Shown: piece by piece, positions 5,749 to 51,194 of the stretch
Numbering within the stretch: the first letter of the stretch is position 1
Layout of the letters: every line of letters begins with the position of its first letter
Assembly: GCA_023819375.1 (NCBI GenBank)
Contig: JAMWDI010000001.1
Span: 107,685 to 171,684, forward strand
Source of the DNA: Candidatus Omnitrophota bacterium
Lineage (GTDB): Bacteria; Ratteibacteria; UBA8468; B48-G9; JAFGKM01
Direction: 5' to 3'
Length of the DNA stretch: 64,000 bases
Notes under the pieces: model-generated
Databases searched by the model: none
The model's input: the letters and a program-made list of their open reading frames with translations, nothing else
Told to the model about the DNA's origin: nothing
Program-made: the position numbers and the translations under genes

Positions 5749-6153
5749 TTAAATGGTTGATATCATTGCATTCGTTGGACATCCCTTTATGCATAATTCA
5801 CATGCAATACATTTTTCTGGTTCAAATTTAACTTCATATGTATTTCTATTAAGGTATAAAGCCCCTGTTGGACACAAAGCAATACAAACTGAGCAATCCG
5901 TACATCTTTCTTTTATCATTCTTATATCACTCTCTATTAGTTGAATTTTTACTCCTTTACTTTTTAATTCTTCTACCGCATCAAAAACATTTTTTTCTTC
6001 TCCTGAAAAAGCAATTACAAGTGTTCCTTCCTCTTCAGGAGAGACAAAGGCTTTTAAAATGTTAAATTCAAGATTGTATTTCCTCACAATAGTTGAAATT
6101 ATTGGCTTATCAACTAAAACTGGCGGGAAATGCATTACAAATTTTTTTTCCAT
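5749..6153 (-). CDS. NIL-domain / 2x[4Fe-4S] ferredoxin fusion protein (homocysteine biosynthesis partner type)
   Basis: 134 aa. N-terminal NIL domain (LEFNILKA) followed by two CxxCxxCxxxCP ferredoxin motifs. Sits directly downstream of the DUF39 gene, the classic pairing. Confidence 0.7.
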   Translation of the reverse strand: MEKKFVMHFPPVLVDKPIISTIVRKYNLEFNILKAFVSPEEEGTLVIAFSGEEKNVFDAVEELKSKGVKIQLIESDIRMIKERCTDCSVCIALCPTGALYLNRNTYEVKFEPEKCIACELCIKGCPTNAMISTI

Positions 6154-6154
6154 A

Positions 6155-7348
6155 TTATACCTCCTTCATTGGTTTAAATTTATATCCTGATTCTGGACCA
6201 GGGAAATAGAAAATTGGTTCAGTTAATAAAAATTCACCACTTTCAATCCACTTTTTTAAAATTTCTGCTATTTCTTTTGCCTTTTTATAACTTGACAGAG
6301 AACCGGTTGGAATTTCTTTTCCCATCAATTTTATCTTCCCACTTTTCAGTTGTGAGTAATTTACATAATCTAAAATATTTCCTGTTGAATTTGGATAATC
6401 ATAACTGTAATCAACTACAGGTGCATAAATCTCTTCATCAGGTATACTTACCCAATTTAATATTTCTTCATTCAAAATTGGTATTGGAATACCAACACCA
6501 ACTATTAAACTCGTTCCATATCCTGTTAAACTTGCTCCTTTTAAAAATTCTACTTTCATCTGTTTTAAATCACCAATTAAAGCAAGCGTTGCTCCAGGAA
6601 TAGTAGGTACTCCATTTTCCCTTCGTTTTACACCTGGATTATATTGAGTCCCCCACCAACAAACATACCCAATCCCTCCTCCAAGAAAAATCCTTGTCCC
6701 AAATCCAATAGTTTTCAAATATGGATCTTTTAAAAGTGGTGATAATTGCCCTGCTGAACAATAATTTGCATTTCCGAGATTTGGTTTTAAGACTCCCATG
6801 TAAGTATAAATTGTTTTATTTGAAAGATTGACTGCAACATTATAATTCTGATAACAATTTCTTGGATTAAAAAGTATTGCTTCATTTATATCATTTATTG
6901 TAATTTTTGTCTTTAAATATTTTTTTGGATAACAGTCAGTGCCATATGCATAGGCAACAAGTTCAATTTCTTTTCCACTTACTAAATCTTCAATTACATG
7001 TCCACCACCATATTTAAACTCGCCTGGATATTTAGTATTCCTTGGATCATCATCTGGCAAAGCAGTCGCTCCAAGATAAACATCAACAGCAGCAAGTCCA
7101 GAATAAGCAGGGACATTATTTAAATATACTCTTCCTCCACCCATTTTGATTTTTTCTTTTGAATGACCAAAATTTAAAAATACACCAGAAGAACACATAG
7201 GGCCAAAAGTTCCAGTTGTTACAACATCTACCTCTTTTGCGAGTTTTTTAACATTTGTAGATTTTTTTAATTCAATTATTTCATCTGCTGTTAAAACTAC
7301 TACTTCTCCTCTTTTTATTTTTTCATTTATTTCTCTTATCGTTTTCAT
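6155..7348 (-). CDS. DUF39/COG1900 homocysteine biosynthesis protein (putative aspartate-semialdehyde sulfurtransferase)
   Basis: 397 aa. GTFGPMCSSG-type glycine-rich core. Adjacent to a NIL-ferredoxin gene and between cysK and the cysteine desulfurase. Confidence 0.6.
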   Translation of the reverse strand: MKTIREINEKIKRGEVVVLTADEIIELKKSTNVKKLAKEVDVVTTGTFGPMCSSGVFLNFGHSKEKIKMGGGRVYLNNVPAYSGLAAVDVYLGATALPDDDPRNTKYPGEFKYGGGHVIEDLVSGKEIELVAYAYGTDCYPKKYLKTKITINDINEAILFNPRNCYQNYNVAVNLSNKTIYTYMGVLKPNLGNANYCSAGQLSPLLKDPYLKTIGFGTRIFLGGGIGYVCWWGTQYNPGVKRRENGVPTIPGATLALIGDLKQMKVEFLKGASLTGYGTSLIVGVGIPIPILNEEILNWVSIPDEEIYAPVVDYSYDYPNSTGNILDYVNYSQLKSGKIKLMGKEIPTGSLSSYKKAKEIAEILKKWIESGEFLLTEPIFYFPGPESGYKFKPMKEV

Positions 7349-7360
7349 TTTTAACTCCTT

Positions 7361-8272
7361 TTAAAAAACTGATAGATACCTTTCACCTGTGTCTGGCAAA
7401 ATAACAACTATTATTTTACCACTATTTTCTTTTCTTTTCCCAATCTTTATTGCAGCAAAAGTAGCAGCACCTGATGAAATTCCACATAATATCCCTTCTT
7501 CTCTTGCTAATCTTTTTGCTGTCTCTATTGCATTCTCGTCGGATACTTTTATTATTTCATCAATTACTTTTAAATTCAATACATCTGGTATAAAACCAGC
7601 ACCGATACCTTGAATTTTATGTCTTCCTGAAAACCCTCCAGATAAAACAGGAGATTTTTCTGGTTCAACAGCAACAATTTTTACATCTTTTTTCCTCTGT
7701 TTTAGCACCTCTCCTACGCCAGTTATTGTTCCTCCAGTCCCTACCCCAGCCACAAATATATCAATTTTCCCATCTGTATCTCTCCATATTTCTTCTGCGG
7801 TTGTCTTTCTATGTATCTCTGGATTTGCTGGATTTTTAAACTGTTGCGGCATAAACGAATTTTTATATTTTTTTAACAATTCTTCTGCTTTTTTTACTGC
7901 TCCTGTCATACCTTCATCTGCTGGTGTTAATACAATTTCAGCACCAAACAAAGATAATAATTTCCTTCTCTCTATACTCATACTCTCTGGCATTGTTAAA
8001 ATTAATTTATATCCTCTTTGTGCACATACAAAAGCAAGACCAATCCCAGTATTTCCACTTGTTGGTTCAATTATAACTGTATCTTTATTTATAAGTCCTT
8101 TTTTTTCAGCATCTTCAATCATACTTACTGCAATCCTATCTTTTACTGAACCACATGGGTTAAAAAATTCAAGTTTTGCATAAATCTCTGCGTAACATCC
8201 TTTCACAACTTTATTCAATTTTACAAGTGGAGTATTCCCAATCAATTCTGTTATATCCTTTGCAAATTTCAT
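7361..8272 (-). CDS. cysK: Cysteine synthase / O-acetylserine sulfhydrylase family (PLP-dependent)
   Basis: Track ORF 7361..8326; I prefer the ATG at 8272 ([19 protein letters not shown]), which has a GGGGAG Shine-Dalgarno 6-10 nt upstream. PLP-binding SVKDR, glycine loop [10 protein letters not shown]. Confidence 0.8.
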
Positions 8273-8288
8273 AAATTTCTCCCCATTT

Positions 8289-8738
8289 TTAGATTTCGTA
8301 AAAGATAACTTTTTTGTCTCTTTCATTCAATTCTTTTTGCTTTTTTATTAATTCATCTAGAGTTATATTATCAAGATATTCCAAAATTTTTTCTTTTATA
8401 TTACACCATAATTTTCTCGCCACACATATTTCACTTCTTTCACATATTTTGCTTTTTTCAACACATTCCGTTGGAGATATTGTGCCTTCAAGGATTTCAA
8501 TTATTTCTTTAATTTTAATTTCTGATGGATCTCTCAAAAAAGCATATCCTCCCTTGCCACCTTTTGCACTTCTTAAAATTCCTGCTTTTTTCAATGTAAG
8601 CATAATATGCTCAAGATATCTTTCTGATAAATTCTGCCTTTTTGCAATATCTTTAACAAAAATTGGTTTTCCTTTATAATAAACTCCAAGATCTATTAAT
8701 GCTCTTAATCCATACCTTGTTCTTGTTGAAATTTTCAT
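8289..8738 (-). CDS. Rrf2-family transcriptional regulator (IscR/NsrR-like, probable Fe-S sensor)
   Basis: 149 aa. N-terminal HTH ([11 protein letters not shown]), C-x6-C-x5-C cluster ([14 protein letters not shown]) matching the cluster-ligand spacing of Fe-S Rrf2 proteins. First gene of the operon. Confidence 0.85.
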
Positions 8739-37148: not shown

Positions 37149-38147
37149 TAAGATTTTTGGAACAACTTCTGAATTTTCAATAAACTCTGGAAATTTCCTT
37201 TCAACAAAAACTCTTCTTAAATTATTAACTGTAAAGTCCCCCATTTTTTTAATTGTCTCATAAGTATACCTTCCTAAATGAGGCATAATTATTACATTTT
37301 TAAACTTCAAAAGTGGATTATCTTTTAATATTTGTTTCATCTCAATTGCATCTTCTGCATATCCCCCGATTTTTCCTGATTTGAGATACTTTATAAGACT
37401 TTTTTCATCTATTAAATCTTTATGAGACGTATTAACAATTATAACTCCCTCTTTCATAATTTCAAATTCTTTTTCTCCTATCATATGATAGGTTTTTTCA
37501 TTTAAAGGGCAATGAAAAGAAATAATATCACAATTTTTACAGATATTTTCTAAACTGGAAGGCATTGCACTTCTTTTTATAATTTCTTCTTCTGTAAGTA
37601 ATGGATCATACGCATAAACATTCATTCCAAAGCCATTTTTTAAAATTTCACAAACTCTTGTTCCAACATTGCCTATCCCCAAAAGTCCTACGTTTTTATC
37701 TTTTAATTCAATTCCAACCAGTTCTATTCTTCTTCCCCATATTTCATTTTTCATAAACTCATAATTTTGATTTAATTTCCTTGCCATTAAAAGTATTAAT
37801 CCCACTGTATATTCAGCCATGGCATTTCTTTGTATCTCAAGTGGAAATCTACAAACTATTATTCCAAATTCTGTTGCAGATTTTATGTCAATATTTGAGT
37901 CTGCTATACCATGTCTTGAAATAATTACAAGTTTTTTCAAATTTTCAAGAATATTTCTGGAATAATAAGGTGAAAGTCCTATAATTAATCCATCAAAGTC
38001 AGATAATTCTTCAATTATTCTTTTTTCAGAAACATCGGAAGGAAAATTAATTCTTTCAACTTCTGAAAATTCTTTTAATTTTTCAATATGCTCAGGATAA
38101 ATTATCCCAAAACTTGTAGAATTAACTATTGCAATTTTATACTTCAT
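37137..38147 (-). CDS. D-isomer-specific 2-hydroxyacid dehydrogenase family protein (NAD-binding)
   Basis: Track ORF 37137..38174; start placed at ATG 38147 (MKYKIAIVNS) with AAGGAG Shine-Dalgarno. Rossmann GLLGIGNVG; overlaps the LarA-like gene. Confidence 0.7.
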   Translation of the reverse strand: MKYKIAIVNSTSFGIIYPEHIEKLKEFSEVERINFPSDVSEKRIIEELSDFDGLIIGLSPYYSRNILENLKKLVIISRHGIADSNIDIKSATEFGIIVCRFPLEIQRNAMAEYTVGLILLMARKLNQNYEFMKNEIWGRRIELVGIELKDKNVGLLGIGNVGTRVCEILKNGFGMNVYAYDPLLTEEEIIKRSAMPSSLENICKNCDIISFHCPLNEKTYHMIGEKEFEIMKEGVIIVNTSHKDLIDEKSLIKYLKSGKIGGYAEDAIEMKQILKDNPLLKFKNVIIMPHLGRYTYETIKKMGDFTVNNLRRVFVERKFPEFIENSEVVPKILLDK

Positions 38148-39405
38148 TTTTATCTCCTTTTTTATAAAGTTCATCTATGTCAGGGATATAACCATCTTTT
38201 CTTCTATACAGAATTTCTCCTGCATTTTTTACAACTAAAATTCCCTCATTTTCTTTATTTTCAAATTCTTCTATTTTTATAAGGTTGTAATCCATGTAAC
38301 CCAAGTTAACTTTTTTACAAATTTCTTCAGAAATTGAGGTTGCAAGTATAACTTCAATCCTTGGTTTTTCAATTCCATTAATATATGTTCCTATCCCTTT
38401 CACATGAGTTGAATGAGCAAGTATACATCCCGGATAATTTTTAAACTTATTCCATTGTTTCAAAAAATAATCTCTCGTGTGATATCCAATTTTCATTAAA
38501 TCTTTTCCATGGGTATACGAAATTTCCTTTACATGGGGTGCATAAATTATTAACTTCCCTCCATCTTCTACAACAGGTTCAAGTTTATACATACATTTTC
38601 CAGCAGTCCATATGTCTTCATACATTTCTGGTGCTATTGAAATTACAAAATTATAACTTCTATCAACATATTTGATATTAATCTGACTTGACAAATCTGC
38701 TGCTTTTTCCCATGCATCTACTTCTCCAATGAATAATCCCATTACTTTTTTTCCCTTTATAACACTACAAATTAACGTCTTTGGGATTTTTATAAAATTT
38801 GCTGCAATATTCAATAAATCTCTTACCGGTGTCTTTTTGAAGCCATTTATTTTTGGATTTGTAATTAATGCTCCAAGCCAGTGAAATTTATTTAGAAATT
38901 TTGGTCCAGAAATTCCCGGAAAAAAATATTTGTATCCACCAGAAAAGCCGACTACCTCGTGAGGAAATACAGGACCGTAGATAATAATTTCATCATAATT
39001 TAAAATCAAGGAATTAATTTCTATTTCTATTTTTTCATCCATTAACCCATTTGTTATTCTTTTCACATCTAATCTTTCAATAACTCCTATTTTGATTAAT
39101 TTTTCTGTTTTATTCCATTCATGTTGATAAATATTAAAATACTTTTCTTCACCATTTAGATGTAAGAAATTTTTTACTTTTTCCTCCGACATAATAGGAT
39201 GTGTCCCAAGTGCAATTAGGAAATCAAGTTTTTTAACTTTTGATGATAAAATATCAATCAAAAATTTAAAGAATAGATATGTTGGACCTGAACGAGTATT
39301 ATCTGGAATTATTACAATTATCTTTTTGTTTTTTAAATCCCTTTTATTAAGTTCTTTTTGGCAGATTTCATATATTTCTTTTTCAGAAAGTTCTTTTGTA
39401 TTCAT
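38137..39405 (-). CDS. LarA-like nickel-pincer-nucleotide (NPN) cofactor-dependent 2-hydroxyacid racemase/epimerase family protein
   Basis: 422 aa. PDNTR motif, ALGTH block, GFSGGYK with a His 17 residues later, consistent with the cofactor-tethering Lys and Ni-ligand His of LarA. Confidence 0.6.
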   Translation of the reverse strand: MNTKELSEKEIYEICQKELNKRDLKNKKIIVIIPDNTRSGPTYLFFKFLIDILSSKVKKLDFLIALGTHPIMSEEKVKNFLHLNGEEKYFNIYQHEWNKTEKLIKIGVIERLDVKRITNGLMDEKIEIEINSLILNYDEIIIYGPVFPHEVVGFSGGYKYFFPGISGPKFLNKFHWLGALITNPKINGFKKTPVRDLLNIAANFIKIPKTLICSVIKGKKVMGLFIGEVDAWEKAADLSSQINIKYVDRSYNFVISIAPEMYEDIWTAGKCMYKLEPVVEDGGKLIIYAPHVKEISYTHGKDLMKIGYHTRDYFLKQWNKFKNYPGCILAHSTHVKGIGTYINGIEKPRIEVILATSISEEICKKVNLGYMDYNLIKIEEFENKENEGILVVKNAGEILYRRKDGYIPDIDELYKKGDKNEV

Positions 39406-44089: not shown

Positions 44090-45106
44090 TCAAATAATTA
44101 AATCATTGACACAAAGAAAATCAGTTTTATAGTAAGTTACTACGTCTGCAATAATATCTTTTATTGAGTAATTTAAATGGAAATCAACAATTTTTTTTAT
44201 TTTGCTTAAATCAGGAATTCTCTTCATCATGTCTTCAAATCCCTTTTTATAAATATTTTCAGGATTTATAAATTTAATCTCTGATTCACTTTTGGTTATT
44301 TCTTTTATAAGTAAGGCCAGATCCTTTATTTTAATTTCATTTTCACTCCCTATATTAAATACTTCTCCATAACTTTCATCTTTGTAAATTAATTTCAATA
44401 TTATTTCGACTACATCTTTCACATGGATAAAACATCTTGATTGTTCACCATCCCCAAAAACAGTTATAGGTTGTCCTGTTAATGCCTGTTTAACAAAACG
44501 TGGTATAACCATACCATATCTATCTGTCTGCCTTGGGCCAACAGTGTTAAATAACCTTACTATAATAACTGGTAACCCAAATTCTTCCTGAAAAGCAAAG
44601 GCAAGAAATTCATCAATTGCCTTTGCGCAAGCATATGACCATCTTTTCTTTTTTGTTGAACCAATAACTATATCTGCTTCTTCATTAAAAGGAACATTTA
44701 AATTTTTTCCATAGATTTCAGATGTTGATGTTATTAAAATTCTTTTTTTATATTTTGCACATAACTTTAAAACATTACATGTTCCCTCAATATTTACAAG
44801 AATCGATTCAATTGGATTTTCTATAACTTTTTTCACACCTACAATTGCAGCAAGATGGAAAACAAAATCAACTTTTTTTATAAGTTCTTCAAGTATATAT
44901 TCATTTAAAATTGTATCAATGAAAAGAAAAAATTTAGGATTGTCTAAAAGTGTTGAAATGTTTTTTAACCTTCCTGTTGAAAGATCATCTATAACAAAAA
45001 CAGTTTTTCCTTGATTTATAAGTTCCTCTGCAAGATGAGAACCAATAAAGCCACATCCTCCTGTTATTAAAAATCTCTCCATTTTATTCAGATTTTCTAA
45101 CTTCAA
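44090..45106 (-). CDS. NAD-dependent nucleotide-sugar epimerase/dehydratase (extended SDR)
   Basis: 338 aa. Rossmann [11 protein letters not shown], catalytic YxxxK (YACAKAI). Confidence 0.85.
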
Positions 45107-45848
45107 TGCCCTTTGATTTTAAATAATTTTTAATTTCTTGAATTGTAAGGATTCTAAAATGCAGAAGAGATGCAAGTAAAATTGCACTTGCTTTCCCTTC
45201 TACAATCGCTTCATATAAATGTTCAAGTTTTCCTGCTCCTCCAGAAGCAATTACAGGAATATTCACAGATTCACTAACTTTTTTCGTCAATTCTATATCA
45301 TATCCCTCTTGAGTTCCGTCTCTATCTATACTGGTTAAAAGTATCTCGCCTGCTCCTAAATCTTCAACTTTTTTCGCCCACTCAATAACATCAAGTCCGG
45401 TTGGTGTTTTTCCACTTTCAATGTAAACTTCCCATTTATCCTTGTCTATTTTTTTCCCATCAATAGCAACAACTATACATTGACTTCCAAATCTTTTTGC
45501 TCCTTCTTCAATAATTTTAGGATTTCTTACAGCAGAAGTATTTATTGATACCTTATCTGCACCGTTTGAAAGTAAATCTTCTATATCTTTTATTGTGGAA
45601 ATTCCTCCACCAACAGTAAATGGAATAAACACAACATCAGCAACTTTTTTAACAACTTCAACCATAGTTTTTCTGCCTTCAATTGTAGCACTTATATCAA
45701 GAAAAACAATTTCATCTGCTCCTTCTTTGCAATAATAAGAGGCATTTTCAACAGGGTCGCCTGCAATTCTTAAATTTTCAAATTGTACTCCTTTCACAAC
45801 TTTGCCATTTTTTACATCTAAACAAGGAATAATTCTCACTGCAACCAT
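45084..45848 (-). CDS. hisF: Imidazole glycerol phosphate synthase cyclase subunit HisF (or sugar-pathway paralogue)
   Basis: 254 aa (beta/alpha)8 barrel with [16 protein letters not shown] start and phosphate-binding SGGAG, TSID blocks. Confidence 0.8.
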
Positions 45849-46444
45849 TTTCCCTCCAATAAATTTTTTAAAAATAATAAACCAATTTTTCCACTTTTTT
45901 CTGGATGAAATTGAACTCCAACAATATTTTCTTTTGAAATGACTGACGGAAAATTTATTCCATATTCTGTTTCTCCTATAATTAAACTTTTATTGGTTTT
46001 AACATAATATGAGTGTGCAAAGTAAAAATAGGAATTATCTTGAATATTTTCAAAAAAATTCTCTCTTTTTAAAATTTTAACTCTATTCCAACCCATATGA
46101 GGAACTTTCAAATTTTTATCCTTAAATTTAATTACTTTTCCTTTTAAAATTCCCAATCCTTCCTTATTGCCTTCTTCACTCCATTCAAAAAGTAATTGAA
46201 ATCCAAGACAAATGCCAAGAAAGGGCATTCCTTTCTCTATCCATTTTTTTATTTCATTTCTCAAATCTGTTTCTTCTAAATATTTCATTCCTGAAGCAAA
46301 ATGTCCGACTCCAGGAAGAATCAAAAATTTTATTTTATTTAAAACTCTAAGATTTTCAATTAAAATAACCTCTTTGCCAAGATATCTTATTGCTGAAATT
46401 ACACTATAGATATTTCCTACATTATACTTTACAATCCCAACCAT
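45836..46444 (-). CDS. hisH: Imidazole glycerol phosphate synthase glutaminase subunit HisH (class I GATase)
   Basis: 202 aa. LPGVGHF, catalytic GICLGFQ, VPHMGWN and HPE motifs. Overlaps hisF. Confidence 0.8.
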
Positions 46445-46459
46445 TATCTTTTTTAAAAA

Positions 46460-47398
46460 TTATACATACTCAATTGTACTTGGTGGTTTTGGAGTTATAT
46501 CATATAAAACTTTAACAACACCAGGAACTTCTTTTAATATTCTATCTCTAATTTTAAATAATCTATCCCAAGGAATTTTTACTACCTCTGCAGTTAAAGC
46601 ATCTTCTGAAATAACTGCTCTAATACTTATTATATCTCCAAGTAATCTTTTACCTTCAACAATTCCTGTTGCTTTATCAGAAAAAAGGACAGGAAATGCT
46701 TGAAAGATTTCTTTTTCTTTAAGTTCTTCTTCTACTATTTTTGTCGCTTTTCTTATTTTTTCTACCCTATCTCTTGTAACTTCACCTAAAATTCTCGTTG
46801 CAAGTCCTGGACCTGGAAAAGGTTTTCTTTCATATACTTTTTTGGGTAACCCCAACTCTTTTGCAACCTCTCTCACTTGAGGTTTAAAAAGTTCTTTCAA
46901 GGGTTCTATAATGGTAAGACCAAAAAAAGCAGGATTTAAGCCTATTTGAGAAAGGACATTATGTTGTGTTTTTATCCCTTTTTGAGTTTCAATAATATCT
47001 GCTGCAATTGTTCCTTGAATTAAAAAATCTGCAGAATAACTCCTCACTGCTTGGCCAAGAATTTTGTAAAAAGTTTCTCTAAATGCCTTCCTTTTTTCTT
47101 CTGGATCTATTTTTCCTTTTAAAGAGTCAAAAAAATTATCCTCAACATCCCATACTTCAAGTTCAATTTCATATTTTTTCAATACCTCTTTTACTTCTTC
47201 TGCCTCATTTTCTCTCATTAAACCATCATTTATAAATAAAACTACAAGATTATCCCCTATTGCTTTTTTGGTAAGAACTGCACAAACGGTACTGTCTACT
47301 CCTCCAGATGTTGCAACTAGTGCTTTTTTATCCTTAATTTTTTTCTTCAGTTCTTCAATTTTTTCTTTTATAAACTTTTTTGGACTAAATTTCGCCAT
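46460..47398 (-). CDS. guaA: GMP synthase ATP-pyrophosphatase subunit (GuaA subunit B type; no fused GATase domain)
   Basis: 312 aa. PP-loop SGGVDS, QGTIAADIIE, EPLKELFK, PFPGPGLATR, DITPKPPSTIEY motifs of the GMP synthase C-terminal domains. Confidence 0.8.
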   Translation of the reverse strand: MAKFSPKKFIKEKIEELKKKIKDKKALVATSGGVDSTVCAVLTKKAIGDNLVVLFINDGLMRENEAEEVKEVLKKYEIELEVWDVEDNFFDSLKGKIDPEEKRKAFRETFYKILGQAVRSYSADFLIQGTIAADIIETQKGIKTQHNVLSQIGLNPAFFGLTIIEPLKELFKPQVREVAKELGLPKKVYERKPFPGPGLATRILGEVTRDRVEKIRKATKIVEEELKEKEIFQAFPVLFSDKATGIVEGKRLLGDIISIRAVISEDALTAEVVKIPWDRLFKIRDRILKEVPGVVKVLYDITPKPPSTIEYV

Positions 47399-47624
47399 TT
47401 ATTTCCCCTCCTTTCTATATTAAAAATTTTTCGAATCTGTCCCTTTCTTTTTTCTATTTTTATCTTTTAAAATAATTTACCCCAGATTTCATGTCAAAAA
47501 GATACTATTGGATTATCTTTATTTTATCATACAAATTAAGAAGTTCAAATTTATATACATTTAAATATTTTTTGTAAAAATAGGGAATTTTACTTTTTAC
47601 ATTGCTAAACTACTTGTTAATATC

Positions 47625-48845
47625 TTAAAATAATGTCATTTCTTCAAAATTATTCCTATCCTCAATTTTAATTTCTATTTTCCCAAACTCTCCATCATAA
47701 CCAGGTTTTATTATCACATTGCCATCTCTCACTTTTTTTATACCCCCAAATATTTTCTCATCAATTTTACTCCTCAGTTCCTCCTCATCTGCTTCGAGAA
47801 GAACATATAATTCTGTTCCAATTTTATTTATAATATCAAAATAACTTTTTTGAACTATTTGAGAAGTTATTTCTTTATTCAAAACACAACTTATTATTTG
47901 ATCAAGTGGAACAAGTTTCTTAAATGGAACATATTTTTGTGGCTTTTCGTCTAATTTCCTATCTGCAAGTTCTTCAACTCTATGCATTACTCCAACAGTA
48001 ACTTTTTTCCCACAAACAGGACAGAGATAATTATTTTTTTTTGTTTCTTCTGGGGAAAGACAAACTCCACAATTTCTGTGGCCGTCATAGTGATATTTCC
48101 CTTCTTCTGGAAAATATTCAATAGTCATTTTAAAATTTTTATTTTTTAGTATTTCTATAAGTTGTTTAAAATCAAATTTATCAAAAAAAACATTTGCTTC
48201 TCTCCCTATCTTTGAAGGCGAATGAGCATCAGAATTTGAAATTAAAGAATATCTGTCTAACCTTGACAATCTCCAGTTCATTTCAGGATCGCTACTTAAA
48301 CCTGTTTCAAGAGCAAAAATTTCACTCGTTAAATCTCCAAAACAATCTTCAATTCTATCAAAACCAGAATTAGAACCAAAAAGAGAAAAATGTGGTGTCC
48401 AAATATGGGCAGGAACAACAAAACCAAATTCATCCACTTCTTTTAAAATTTCTAAAAGTTCTCTTGCAGAAAGTTGTAAAGTTGGACGTCCATCAGCATT
48501 TAAATCACCATACTTTTCAATATTTCTATTGAATTTTTCAACTTTTTCAATAGTTGAGATAAATATTATATTATGAACCTTTTTTGTAACACCTTTATAC
48601 TCAAAAATATTGCATACCTCTCCTGTCAGAATAAAATCAATTCCACCATACTGATAAATGCCAAATCGTTCTGTTTCTTTAAGATTTCTTTTTAACTCAT
48701 GAAACCAGTAAAAATGTGTAATATCTCCCGTTCCAAGGAGATTAATACCCTTATATTTTGCCCACTTCACAAGCCCATCAAGTTCCATATCTTTACTTGT
48801 TGCTCTACTATATTTTGAATGAATATGGAAATCAGCAATATACAT
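47625..48845 (-). CDS. PHP-domain nuclease, endonuclease Q (EndoQ/TIGR00375)-like
   Basis: 406 aa. N-terminal PHP motif YIADFHIHSKYSRATS, further His/Asp metal-ligand blocks, C-terminal zinc finger (CPVCGKK). Confidence 0.55.
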   Translation of the reverse strand: MYIADFHIHSKYSRATSKDMELDGLVKWAKYKGINLLGTGDITHFYWFHELKRNLKETERFGIYQYGGIDFILTGEVCNIFEYKGVTKKVHNIIFISTIEKVEKFNRNIEKYGDLNADGRPTLQLSARELLEILKEVDEFGFVVPAHIWTPHFSLFGSNSGFDRIEDCFGDLTSEIFALETGLSSDPEMNWRLSRLDRYSLISNSDAHSPSKIGREANVFFDKFDFKQLIEILKNKNFKMTIEYFPEEGKYHYDGHRNCGVCLSPEETKKNNYLCPVCGKKVTVGVMHRVEELADRKLDEKPQKYVPFKKLVPLDQIISCVLNKEITSQIVQKSYFDIINKIGTELYVLLEADEEELRSKIDEKIFGGIKKVRDGNVIIKPGYDGEFGKIEIKIEDRNNFEEMTLF

Positions 48846-49381: not shown

Positions 49382-50521
49382 TTAACTTAATTCCTTATAA
49401 ATTTCTAAAGTTCTTTTTGCTGTATTTTCCCATGTAAACATTTCACTTCTTTTTAATCCTTTCTCTATTAATTTTTTTCTTAATTCATTATCTTCTATTA
49501 ATTTCAATATAGCCCACCCTATCTCTTCTTCATCTCTTGGATTAACAAGTAAAGCAGCATCTCCTGCCACCTCAGGCATAGATGATACATTTGAAGTTAT
49601 AACTGGAACTCCGCATCTCATTGCTTCAAGTATCGGAAGTCCAAAGCCTTCATATAAAGAAGGATAAATAAATATATCAGAACCACTATAAAGTAAAGGC
49701 AGATCTTGATAAGGAACATAATTTGTAAGAACAATGTCTTTTCTGACTCTCACCGGTAACTCATTCAATTTTTTTAAAAACTCCTTTTTTTTCCATCCCA
49801 ATTTACCACAAATAACAAGTTGATAATCAGGTATCTTTTCTTTAATTTTTGCAAAAGTATTTACCAACCTTATATGATTTTTCTTGGGTTCAACAGTACA
49901 AACACACAACAAGTATTTTTTATAAATTCCGTATTTTCTTTTAATATTTTCAATTCTTTCTTTATCTTCAACTCTATGAAAAAAGTCATCAACTCCTTCA
50001 TAAACAACACTTATTTTTTCTGGTTTAACATTAAAATAATTTATTAAATCTTCTTTTGTTGAATTTGAAACAGTAATTATTTTATCTGATTTTCTTATGG
50101 CACGTATAACAGCAAATTTAAATGTTTCAACTTCTAAGGGATGAAACCAAGAAGGAAAAATGATATATCCTAAATCATGAAAGGTTATAATTTGTTTACC
50201 ATAAATATTTAAACAATAATAAGGCTGAACAAGTATGTGAATTAAATCAAATTTTCCATGTAAAATTTCAACTGGAAAAATCATTTGAAGTGAAGAAACT
50301 AATTTATTTGGAAGTATTTTAACAGATATATAAAAGTTTTCTGATTTAATTTTTCTTTGTAGATAAAATTTTTCTTTATATTTTTCAATACTACATCCAA
50401 ATAGAATATAAAGATTTTCCTTGTCTATCTTAGCAAGATTAGTTACAAGATAATAAGCATACCAACTAATGCCGGTTTTTCTTTTTACAAGAAAACATGA
50501 TATATCAATCCCTATTTTCAT
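49382..50521 (-). CDS. Glycosyltransferase family 4 (GT-B, group 1)
   Basis: 379 aa. E-x7-E region YEGFGLPILEAMRCGVPVITS. Confidence 0.85.
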   Translation of the reverse strand: MKIGIDISCFLVKRKTGISWYAYYLVTNLAKIDKENLYILFGCSIEKYKEKFYLQRKIKSENFYISVKILPNKLVSSLQMIFPVEILHGKFDLIHILVQPYYCLNIYGKQIITFHDLGYIIFPSWFHPLEVETFKFAVIRAIRKSDKIITVSNSTKEDLINYFNVKPEKISVVYEGVDDFFHRVEDKERIENIKRKYGIYKKYLLCVCTVEPKKNHIRLVNTFAKIKEKIPDYQLVICGKLGWKKKEFLKKLNELPVRVRKDIVLTNYVPYQDLPLLYSGSDIFIYPSLYEGFGLPILEAMRCGVPVITSNVSSMPEVAGDAALLVNPRDEEEIGWAILKLIEDNELRKKLIEKGLKRSEMFTWENTAKRTLEIYKELS

Positions 50522-51194
50522 TTTTTATTTGATTTTTAGCCATATAAAGCCAGATAAAAAAAATATTAGGGACTTTTAAGAATATCTGTAAATACATTTT
50601 ATAAAATGCAATTGCTCCTTTTATTCTACTTTTCATCTTTTCTCTTTTTGATATAAATCTTAATCCTTTACACCTTACATTCATAAATTTTAATCTGTTT
50701 TTAACAATGTATTTATCAATTAATGCTTCAACAGCAAAACGAGAATTTTCCAGTCCTTTTATATTTTCAAAAATTTCCCTTTTTATTGCTCTTTCACCCG
50801 AAAAAATATCTATTTTAAAAAATGGTTCGTTACTGTTATCCCTATAAGAAATAGTCATATCAACTTTTCCTTCAATTACTGGTAATAACAAATCTTCAAT
50901 ATGTTTACATGTTAAGCCCTGAAGATCTGCATCTAAAAATAAAATTATGTTGCCTCTTGAATTTTCCACTCCAATCTTCATTGCTTTGCCCTTTCCATAA
51001 TTTCTATCCAGATTAATCACCTTTGCACCTGCTTTTAAGGCTATTTCACTTGTTCTATCATTTGAACCATCATTAACAACTATTATTTCATCAACAAAAT
51101 TACTTTTCTTTACGACATTCAAAACATTTAAAATCCTATATTCCTCATTATAAGCAGGAATCACAACGCTCACCATGTAATCTTTTCTCTCCAT
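50505..51194 (-). CDS. Glycosyltransferase family 2 (polyprenyl-phosphate sugar synthase-like)
   Basis: 229 aa. VVIPAYNEE, NDGSNDRT, DADLQ (DxD) motifs. Confidence 0.8.
   Translation of the reverse strand: MERKDYMVSVVIPAYNEEYRILNVLNVVKKSNFVDEIIVVNDGSNDRTSEIALKAGAKVINLDRNYGKGKAMKIGVENSRGNIILFLDADLQGLTCKHIEDLLLPVIEGKVDMTISYRDNSNEPFFKIDIFSGERAIKREIFENIKGLENSRFAVEALIDKYIVKNRLKFMNVRCKGLRFISKREKMKSRIKGAIAFYKMYLQIFLKVPNIFFIWLYMAKNQIKNENRD

Follow-up and report, generated by a model that had tools for sequence, protein, structure and literature searches.

The window analysed here, a stretch of 64,000 nucleotides (64 kb) from a Candidatus Omnitrophota bacterium, carries a hisH–hisF pair between guaAB, a gene for a stand-alone GMP synthase subunit, and genes for sugar modification. 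The locus raises the question of whether this pair serves histidine biosynthesis or, as a preliminary description had suggested, the amidation of a nucleotide sugar. The preferred reading, to which a probability of about 0.8 is assigned, is that HisH and HisF form an ordinary imidazole glycerol phosphate (IGP) synthase encoded beside an archaeal-type GMP synthase subunit, within a conserved Omnitrophota gene block that has lost purF and carAB; the identities of the three proteins, their catalytic residues, and the synteny were established by the comparisons below. The features concerned are as follows.

44090–45106, minus strand: gene for an SDR epimerase/dehydratase (UDP-xylose synthase / ArnA C-terminal-like; PF01370, PF16363)
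45084–45848, minus strand: hisF, 254 aa, cyclase subunit of IGP synthase
45836–46444, minus strand: hisH, 202 aa, glutaminase subunit of IGP synthase
46460–47398, minus strand: guaAB, 312 aa, stand-alone ATP-pyrophosphatase subunit of a two-subunit GMP synthase, divergent IKTQHN subfamily
47469–47497, minus strand: promoter-like site, TTGACA-17-TATTTT, in the 226-nt gap upstream of guaAB, located by a consensus scan and direct reading of the sequence

The open reading frames of hisF, hisH, and guaAB had exactly the coordinates given in the preliminary description, and the overlap of hisH with hisF reported there was found to be 13 nt. Such an overlap is as expected for translational coupling. 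guaAB was located upstream of hisH with a spacing of 15 nt, and its ATG was preceded by a ribosome-binding site, GGAGGGG. The 226-nt gap upstream of guaAB gave no match to any Rfam family, riboswitches and leaders included. The promoter-like site in this gap is a consensus match in AT-rich DNA and might be a putative promoter. Transcription of guaAB, hisH, and hisF as one unit, starting from a promoter ahead of guaAB, is probable.

The SDR gene is a co-directional neighbour directly downstream of hisF and lies outside the enzyme pair. In public gene calls it started at an ATG 1 nt past the hisF stop codon, which gave a protein of 330 aa. Its best NCBIfam matches were far under the cut-offs (LegB, 178 vs 475; PRK11908, 159 vs 294). 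It was followed by genes for ArsR, a PMT_2 (ArnT-like) glycosyltransferase, and a PIG-L deacetylase, while GT4 and GT2 glycosyltransferases were encoded on the upstream side at 49382–51194, so that the sugar epimerase and glycosyltransferase-type neighbours were present as first described. The three proteins are known enzymes and are already annotated so at NCBI, as HisF (MCM8771634.1), HisH (MCM8771635.1), and a 'glutamine-hydrolyzing GMP synthase' (MCM8771636.1).

A tblastn search of the 64-kb window with HisZ, HisG, HisD, HisB, HisA, HisI, and HisE of a Bacillus-type operon found only hisH and hisF. Pfam labels identified no other his gene in the window together with 10 kb of left flank and 7.5 kb of right flank (about 81 kb), in agreement with the earlier remark that no further histidine-pathway gene is nearby; hisA, hisB, hisC, hisD, hisG, hisI, and hisE were found neither in these 81 kb nor in about 30 clade loci. 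Other Omnitrophota had full hisD-B-H-A-F-I operons. In contrast to hisA-linked IGP synthase genes, the pair was detached from hisA and placed between guaAB and envelope glycan genes. Because no other his gene was present in the loci searched, only the intact PRFAR-site residues of HisF point to the rest of the pathway, and the remaining his genes would be located elsewhere in the genome. A literature search for histidine or purine auxotrophy in Omnitrophota returned nothing relevant, and a search by accession connected one sample with a hot-spring study.

HisH passed the TIGR01855 model with 226.7 bits (cut-off 105.4). An alignment with T. maritima HisH (1gpw_B) showed that the protein kept the Cys-His-Glu class I triad, tested as Cys84-His178-Glu180 (GICLG, FHPEKS), and the PHMGWN segment, and it carried the Trp and Lys residues of the HisF interface. 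The canonical reference comprised 54 HisF and 80 HisH sequences. A scan of genome contigs with HisH, in which the universal pattern GVQFHPEK dominated, supplied a panel of 80 canonical his operons; neither the source genome nor close relatives were among the matches listed. HisH retained 41 of the 43 positions conserved in the 80 operon-encoded HisH proteins.

HisF passed the TIGR00735 equivalog model with 381.1 bits (cut-off 294.55), compared with 401.6 bits for a control HisF from a Bacillus-type his operon of Niallia. It retained 66 of the 69 positions conserved in the 54 operon-encoded HisF proteins, for which the canonical range was 61–69, and was 50–64% identical to HisF within hisH-hisA-hisF operons of many phyla. 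Its scores against the reconstructed LUCA-HisF and T. maritima HisF were 338.5 and about 285 bits, respectively. At all 16 functional positions checked, including Asp11 and Asp130, HisF was identical to T. maritima HisF, and both aspartates were also kept in 16 of 16 clade HisF proteins. The gate residues Arg5, Glu46, Lys99, and Glu167 were present, together with both phosphate-site motifs. The residue roles in T. maritima numbering (catalytic Asp11 and Asp130, ammonia gate, and PRFAR phosphate site) are those described in the 1THF and 1GPW literature. The pair therefore passed both models of the T. maritima IGP synthase (1GPW; TIGR01855/TIGR00735) and shared its catalytic and gate residues.

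The sugar-amidation reading holds that HisH, HisF, and the upstream PP-loop enzyme would amidate a nucleotide sugar, with acetamidino formation, for the envelope glycan of the neighbouring SDR and glycosyltransferase genes. The gene order, PP-loop ATPase-hisH-hisF, mirrors that of real WbuX-HisH-HisF2 and was the same as in the WbuX/WbuY/WbuZ and AglZ/HisF2 systems (TIGR03573, TIGR03572, NF038364; Sphingomonas locus, PMC11340318). Sugar-modifying genes are near in both cases, and sugar genes flanked the trio in every lineage. Furthermore, HisF reached 295.2 bits on the WbuZ model TIGR03572, just 4.5 bits under the cut-off of 299.7. However, the Niallia control from a his operon scored much the same on this model (288.9 bits), and on the AglZ/HisF2 model NF038364 the values were 239.4 bits for HisF and 238.7 bits for the control against a cut-off of 310. 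Four genuine sugar-locus HisF-like proteins (loci L177–L180) were compared; they gave 233–257 bits on TIGR00735, under the cut-off, and matched only 44–53 of the 69 canonical positions, and in all four Asp11 was replaced (Leu, Leu, Glu, and Leu), whereas HisF of the window kept both Asp11 and the canonical residues. WbuX was encoded beside hisH in three of the four sugar loci (L178–L180), with none in the stretch of L177 shown. The PP-loop protein of the window, in contrast, is of the GuaA type and had no TIGR03573 (WbuX) match at E ≤ 1e-5, where a real WbuX scored 280 bits, and a blastp alignment of GuaAB with real WbuX covered the PP-loop region only (E = 5e-4). In addition, purF and carAB part guaAB from hisH in relatives, and the adjoining sugar genes varied while a housekeeping backbone was conserved. 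The assignment of HisH and HisF as WbuY/WbuZ-type paralogues was thus not supported by residues, scores, and synteny, and a sugar-amidating role is extremely improbable.

Residues of HisH were tried as a discriminator between biosynthetic and sugar-locus proteins and failed, with 41 of 43 positions retained here and 35–41 in the sugar-locus copies. In a neighbour-joining tree of HisF, the four sugar-locus sequences did not form one group (2 of 100 bootstraps), and their long branches were basal or scattered. Since this tree could not decide on a 'sugar clade', the sugar-locus question was judged by residues and HMM scores. Asp11 of HisF, combined with the score on the HisF model, provides a simple test that parts biosynthetic HisF from sugar-locus HisF2/WbuZ. 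Such a residue test matters because the gene order alone, a PP-loop gene, hisH, and hisF beside sugar genes, would mislead.

GuaAB scored 343.9 bits on the TIGR00884 model (guaA_Cterm), marginally over the cut-off of 338.75, and its close relatives scored 309–327 bits, below the cut-off. It contained the PF00958 GMP_synt_C domain (92.9 bits) without a GATase domain, and its best solved relatives were subunit B of M. jannaschii (6jp9, 287.9 bits) and the P. horikoshii protein (2dpl, 275.5 bits), which confirmed its initial description as a GuaA-type ATP-pyrophosphatase of the split archaeal type. As in the archaeal two-subunit GMP synthases (MJ1131/MJ1575, PH1347/PH1346; 6JP9, 2DPL), the protein is a stand-alone ATPPase of ~310 aa, and the PP-loop, lid loop, dimerisation domain, and KPPxTIE C-terminal loop are common to both. 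The differences are that the host is bacterial, that the lid loop reads IKTQHN and the C-terminus EYV, and that no GuaAA was found in the loci examined. The PP-loop SGGVDS, the KPPSTIE segment, the equivalents of Pf Asp371 and Glu374, and the equivalent of Mj Arg249 were kept.

In the lid loop, Lys, His, and Asn were retained, and the sequence was IKTQHN instead of IK(T/S)HHN. The latter motif was called invariant in a review of GMP synthases, in which the bacterial enzymes were described as two-domain proteins (PMC10526850). IKTQHN was present in all of the best 120 homologues of GuaAB, and of the 124 family representatives whose motif could be read, 20 had the lid-loop Gln. The variant therefore marks a broad subfamily rather than an oddity of one locus, and IK(T/S)HHN is not truly invariant. 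GuaAB is accordingly predicted, from its sequence, to be the ATP-pyrophosphatase of GMP synthase in a divergent subfamily.

The same divergence could be read as that of a paralogous ATP-pyrophosphatase which acts on another substrate, possibly with the neighbouring amidotransferase genes, and which is not a GMP synthase. Beyond the uniform IKTQHN motif, the clade has EY(I/V) at the C-terminus in place of E(W/F)E, and a loop that reads GVxGDxR in the family has turned into GIVEGKR. On TIGR00884, IKTQHN-type proteins scored 300–370 bits versus 441–461 bits for HHN-type stand-alone subunits, and NCBI names for clade members vary among QueC, ExsB, ATP-binding protein, and GMP synthase. The H388A mutant of PfGMPS was greatly impaired (PMC10526850). 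However, the GMP synthase architecture was whole: the dimerisation domain was present, KPPxTIE kept the Lys and Glu that contact XMP, the loop of the neighbouring chain kept its Arg, and the catalytic helix and lid kept their Asp, Glu, Lys, His, and Asn. The breadth of the Gln variant among family representatives also argues against a separate function, as do the Altiarchaeota, which share the GuaAB clade (63% identity), carry the Gln variant, and do have GuaAA. The neighbours in relatives were purine and pyrimidine genes, namely purF and carAB, with purA also next to guaAB in locus L093, and no second GMP synthase was seen in the DNA examined. A function other than GMP synthesis is therefore considered very unlikely.

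In order to place the three genes in their wider context, more than 30 metagenomic loci with GuaAB proteins 66–85% identical to that of the window were compared. The shared order was CCA-HIT-MJ0043-(LpxK)-GuaAB-[PurF]-[CarA-CarB or CarB C-half]-HisH-HisF, followed by SDR-PMT_2 or Elm1-GT9 according to lineage. An SDR gene after hisF was limited to the closest lineages (L091 and L102), and the other lineages had Elm1-GT9. The GT2 and GT4 genes between the CCA-enzyme and HIT genes were confined to the lineage of the window. The flanking sugar genes thus differed among relatives, whereas the housekeeping backbone was conserved. The most frequent and most complete arrangement had purF and carA-carB between guaAB and hisH.

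These arrangements suggest that the Omnitrophota lineage inherited a block of glutamine-using biosynthetic genes, guaAB-purF-carA-carB-hisH-hisF, and that the lineage of the window then lost purF and carAB from it, which would account for the adjacency of guaAB and hisH. Envelope glycan genes would have been inserted or swapped in each lineage on a backbone of the CCA-adding enzyme, HIT, MJ0043-like, and lpxK genes through to Elm1 and GT9.

The GuaAA glutaminase subunit was found neither in the window and its 17.5 kb of flanks nor in about 180 related loci. Among the best 120 relatives of the M. jannaschii or Altiarchaeales GuaAA, none was bacterial by name and the named matches were all archaeal; two unnamed GuaAA-like matches were checked and were archaeal as well. 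The exclusively archaeal matches among these best 120 are suggestive, though not proof, of an absence in the clade. The ammonia source for GuaAB, either a GuaAA subunit or free NH3, would be located elsewhere in the genome. A PF02540 protein of 266 aa (1493–2293) was considered as an ammonia-type NAD synthase and rejected, since NCBIfam identified it as LarE (329.5 bits); its support for a general use of free ammonia was dropped for this reason.

Alternatively, HisH might serve two synthases, HisF and the stand-alone GuaAB, and replace GuaAA as the ammonia supplier in the clade. A parallel is provided by Bacillus, in which one TrpG/PabA glutaminase is shared by anthranilate and aminodeoxychorismate synthases. 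The synthases of that known shared glutaminase are homologous, whereas HisF and GuaAB have unrelated folds, and a dual glutaminase interface of this kind is, to our knowledge, without precedent. The guaAB gene adjoined or overlapped hisH in at least nine loci (the window, L091, L097, L098, L102, L118, and L124–L126), which span GuaAB identities of 75–100%, and in L097 the guaAB-hisH pair was kept with no hisF within 8 kb. The lack of GuaAA in every locus and among the best-listed Altiarchaeales GuaAA relatives, together with its presence in Altiarchaeota of the same GuaAB clade, is also consistent with a replacement. However, purF and carA-carB part guaAB from hisH in the commonest arrangement, so that the adjacency looks like a secondary gene loss. 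In L110, guaAB was not followed by hisH or hisF, and in three more distant lineages (L129, L139, and L175) guaAB was paired with hisF while hisH was not nearby. HisH itself showed no deviation from canonical HisH. In addition, ATPPase subunits are able to use free ammonia (PMC10526850), and the absence of GuaAA covers loci rather than whole genomes. The sharing of HisH is thus regarded as very unlikely. If it were true, one class I glutaminase would supply two structurally unrelated synthases, a new kind of sharing, and this partnership would be what the repeated, fusion-like proximity of guaAB and hisH reflects.

With HisH and HisF as an ordinary IGP synthase, HisH would hydrolyse glutamine, and the ammonia would travel through the HisF barrel and react with PRFAR to give IGP and AICAR. 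GuaAB would adenylate XMP and then aminate it to GMP. The three genes would be adjacent as the remainder of the inherited block of glutamine-using genes. For an uncultured bacterium, a correctly annotated IGP synthase together with one subunit of a split GMP synthase matters little in itself. The two-subunit GMP synthase is described as archaeal in the literature. It is widespread across Omnitrophota and neighbouring candidate phyla, and the subfamily that occurs there departs from the 'invariant' motif. Outside the window, the 10 kb on its left side contained oxidative-stress genes.

The guaAB, hisH and hisF genes were arranged consecutively on the minus strand, and their coordinates, together with the hisH/hisF overlap, agreed exactly with the preliminary description:

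46460–47398, minus strand: guaAB, GuaA-type ATP-pyrophosphatase, 312 aa (TIGR00884, GMP_synt_C)
45836–46444, minus strand: hisH, 15 nt downstream of guaAB (TIGR01855)
45084–45848, minus strand: hisF, overlapping hisH by 13 nt (TIGR00735)

Against the NCBIfam cut-offs, HisF scored 381.1 bits on TIGR00735 (cut-off 294.55), HisH 226.7 bits on TIGR01855 (105.4), and GuaAB 343.9 bits on TIGR00884, guaA_Cterm (338.75). The three products are known kinds of enzyme, already annotated as such by NCBI under the names HisF, HisH and glutamine-hydrolyzing GMP synthase (MCM8771634–36). The source is an uncultured Omnitrophota bacterium known from hot-spring metagenomes, with a G+C content of ~28%. An SDR epimerase/dehydratase gene was located directly 3' of hisF, followed by ArsR, PMT_2 (ArnT-like) glycosyltransferase, PIG-L deacetylase, DUF2062 and PEMT genes. 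Upstream of guaAB were genes for an MJ0043-like protein and a HIT protein, with GT4 and GT2 glycosyltransferases beyond. The 226-nt gap 5' of guaAB contained a TTGACA-17-TATTTT site and a strong ribosome-binding site, and no Rfam element was detected in it.

The hisH–hisF pair was indeed isolated from other his genes, as had been noted earlier. When Bacillus-type operon HisZ, G, D, B, A, I and E were searched against the 64-kb window by tblastn, the only matches were to hisH and hisF. No other his gene was present among the Pfam labels of called genes in the window and its 17.5 kb of flanks (10 kb left, 7.5 kb right), nor in ~30 related loci. Other Omnitrophota (loci L019, L063 and L090) carried hisD-hisB-hisH-hisA-hisF-hisI operons.

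The preliminary description had suggested that the pair might consist of sugar-amidation paralogues of the WbuY/WbuZ type. The comparison set comprised four genuine sugar-locus hisH/hisF pairs on plasmids of Agrobacterium, Sphingomonadaceae, Azospirillum and Rhodobacteraceae. The three components of such systems, a PP-loop ATPase, a HisH-type glutaminase and a HisF-type barrel, also occur together in a Sphingomonas locus described in the literature (PMC11340318). On the HisF, WbuZ and AglZ models, the window HisF scored 381, 295 and 239 bits, similar to the control HisF from a Niallia his operon (402, 289 and 239 bits, respectively), and the HisF model gave 233 and 257 bits, below the cut-off, for the two sugar-locus proteins scored. 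The window HisF kept 66 of the 69 positions that are ≥92% conserved among 54 operon-encoded HisF (canonical range 61–69; sugar-locus proteins 44–53). The catalytic Asp11 was present in the window HisF and in 16 of 16 clade members; the four sugar-locus proteins instead had Leu, Leu, Glu and Leu at this position. The window HisF was identical to T. maritima HisF at all 16 functional positions checked. HisH could not discriminate between the two types, because the sugar-locus copies retained the same conserved residues. In a neighbor-joining tree, the HisF clade of the window was nested on short branches among operon HisF; the tree was otherwise not decisive, since the sugar-locus sequences were not monophyletic.

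The partner protein also differed. In three of the four sugar loci, hisH adjoined a gene for WbuX, the PP-loop partner of these systems. The PP-loop protein adjoining hisH in the window had no WbuX match; a real WbuX scored 280 bits on TIGR03573 and was linked to GuaAB by blastp through the PP-loop only. The HMM scores, the HisF residues including Asp11 and the missing WbuX partner set the window apart from the sugar loci, and the sugar-amidation assignment is not supported. The hisH–hisF pair is instead predicted from its sequence to be a biosynthetic IGP synthase within a lineage-conserved housekeeping block.

This block was recognized in the gene contexts of three of the nearest GuaAB homologues and of 80 loci from a metagenome scan aimed at a clade-specific stretch. 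The nearest homologues, which came from Omnitrophota, Ratteibacteria, unclassified MAGs and Altiarchaeales, were all stand-alone proteins of ~311 aa. Where GuaAB was ≥66% identical to that of the window, a single backbone was found, CCA-HIT-MJ0043-like-(LpxK)-GuaAB-[PurF]-[CarA-CarB or CarB C-terminal half]-HisH-HisF, followed 3' of HisF by either Elm1-like and GT9 heptosyltransferases or SDR and PMT_2. The guaAB gene abutted or overlapped hisH in the window, L091, L097, L098, L102, L118 and L124–L126, and purF and/or carAB lay between them in other lineages. Given this variation, the most parsimonious reading is that nucleotide and histidine enzymes that consume glutamine are encoded in a conserved block, and that purF and carAB were lost from it in the lineage of the window. 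Among L092, L093 and L099–L126, relatives carried a conserved guaAB-purF-carA-carB-hisH-hisF glutamine-amidotransferase cluster located between lpxK and the Elm1/GT9 LPS-core genes. The backbone had two exceptions, L097 (described below) and L110, where Elm1 directly followed guaAB. At L093, L100, L108, L115–L117 and L119, the part of CarB present in the cluster was a C-terminal half of 519 aa alone, and CarB therefore appears to be split.

The sugar genes around the block are variable passengers. The genes after hisF differed from lineage to lineage, and only in the lineage of the window did GT4 and GT2 genes (49382–51194) separate the gene for the CCA-adding enzyme from that for HIT. The CCA and HIT genes were directly adjacent in L091, a relative at 85% identity, and in other clade members, so the GT4/GT2 pair represents a lineage-specific glycan-gene insertion into the housekeeping backbone. 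The MJ0043-like/TIGR00375-family protein (47625–48845; 213.6 bits, short of the 326.6-bit cut-off), of unknown function, adjoined HIT upstream of lpxK/guaAB throughout the clade.

Locus L097 (198–6660) was the sole lineage in which hisH was kept beside guaAB but not beside hisF. No hisF was found within 8 kb of its guaAB-hisH pair, which was followed by genes for a B12-binding radical SAM protein, a DegT/RfbH-like aminotransferase, a GDP-fucose-synthase-like SDR and a WecB-like epimerase. Distant lineages, with GuaAB 55–64% identical to that of the window, showed diverse contexts, among them four loci at 59–63% identity. Canonical hisF overlapped guaAB by 4 nt at L129 (2–1545) and L175 (1720–3419) and adjoined it at L139 (2277–4125). 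L137 (2–7397) contained two GuaAB-like genes, 44% and 59% identical, with hisF between the former and a purF-like gene, ~5 kb from the latter. No hisH was found on contigs L137, L139 and L175.

GuaAB contained the GMP_synt_C domain without a glutaminase domain, and its best solved relatives were the subunits B of M. jannaschii (288 bits) and P. horikoshii (276 bits), ahead of fused bacterial enzymes, which supports its earlier description as a split-type subunit. A review describes bacterial GMP synthases as two-domain proteins and assigns the two-subunit form to many archaea (PMC10526850). The window clade departed at three motifs from features called invariant in that review. The lid loop (residues 142–147) was IKTQHN in all 120 nearest homologues listed, not IK(T/S)HHN; the H388A substitution strongly impaired PfGMPS (PMC10526850). 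Residues 245–251 were GIVEGKR in place of GVxGDxR, and the C-terminus (residues 304–312) carried EY(I/V). In an exhaustive representative search, the Gln variant of the lid loop was carried by 20 of the 124 readable family representatives, many with a length of 366–405 aa. Gln-type proteins scored 300–370 bits on TIGR00884, compared with 441–461 for two HHN-type stand-alone proteins (309 and 322 aa) recovered by that search. The catalytic Asp and Glu, the lid Lys, His and Asn, the inter-chain Arg, and the Lys and Glu of KPPxTIE were all retained in the clade. By these residues, GuaAB was filed as a putative divergent subfamily of GMP synthase ATP-pyrophosphatase.

A separate glutaminase subunit, GuaAA, that could supply ammonia to GuaAB was sought with an HMM of the N-terminal domains taken from 65 fused GuaA proteins chosen as representatives. 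In the window and ~180 loci, it gave only HisH and CarA cross-matches (≤78 bits), and M. jannaschii GuaAA (query 100% identical to 2LXN) found nothing better. In database searches with M. jannaschii and Altiarchaeales GuaAA, every named protein among the best 120 matches was archaeal, and two unnamed matches lay in archaeal contexts on inspection. This absence is meaningful because Altiarchaeota, which share the GuaAB clade of the window (63% identity), do have GuaAA. In the loci and matches covered by these searches, the bacterial clade showed no co-inherited GuaAA; a divergent one may be encoded elsewhere in the genome, and such an undetected GuaAA is the likeliest of three candidate ammonia sources. 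GuaAB may also use free ammonia directly, of which the ATP-pyrophosphatase unit alone is capable (PMC10526850). Borrowing of the adjoining HisH as a glutaminase was considered very improbable, since the fuller gene order in relatives separates guaAB from hisH, HisF and GuaAB have unrelated folds, and HisH has nothing unusual.

Elsewhere in the window, a LarE sacrificial sulfur transferase (1493–2293; 329.5 bits on TIGR00268) and, 36 kb from it, a LarA N-terminal domain (PF09861) protein beside a 2-hydroxyacid dehydrogenase (38137–39405) are scattered parts of a nickel-pincer cofactor/lactate-racemase-like system. A methanogen-type homocysteine biosynthesis protein (PF01837, HcyBio), with a weak match to methanogenesis marker 16, was encoded in this bacterial genome with a NIL/ferredoxin protein and a PALP enzyme (5749–8326). 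The 10 kb to the left of the window (L183, 4711–12679) contained a dense run of oxidative-stress genes typical of an anaerobe, encoding rubredoxin, flavo-diiron protein, rubrerythrins, ferritins, desulfoferrodoxin, peroxiredoxins, glutaredoxin and thioredoxin reductase.
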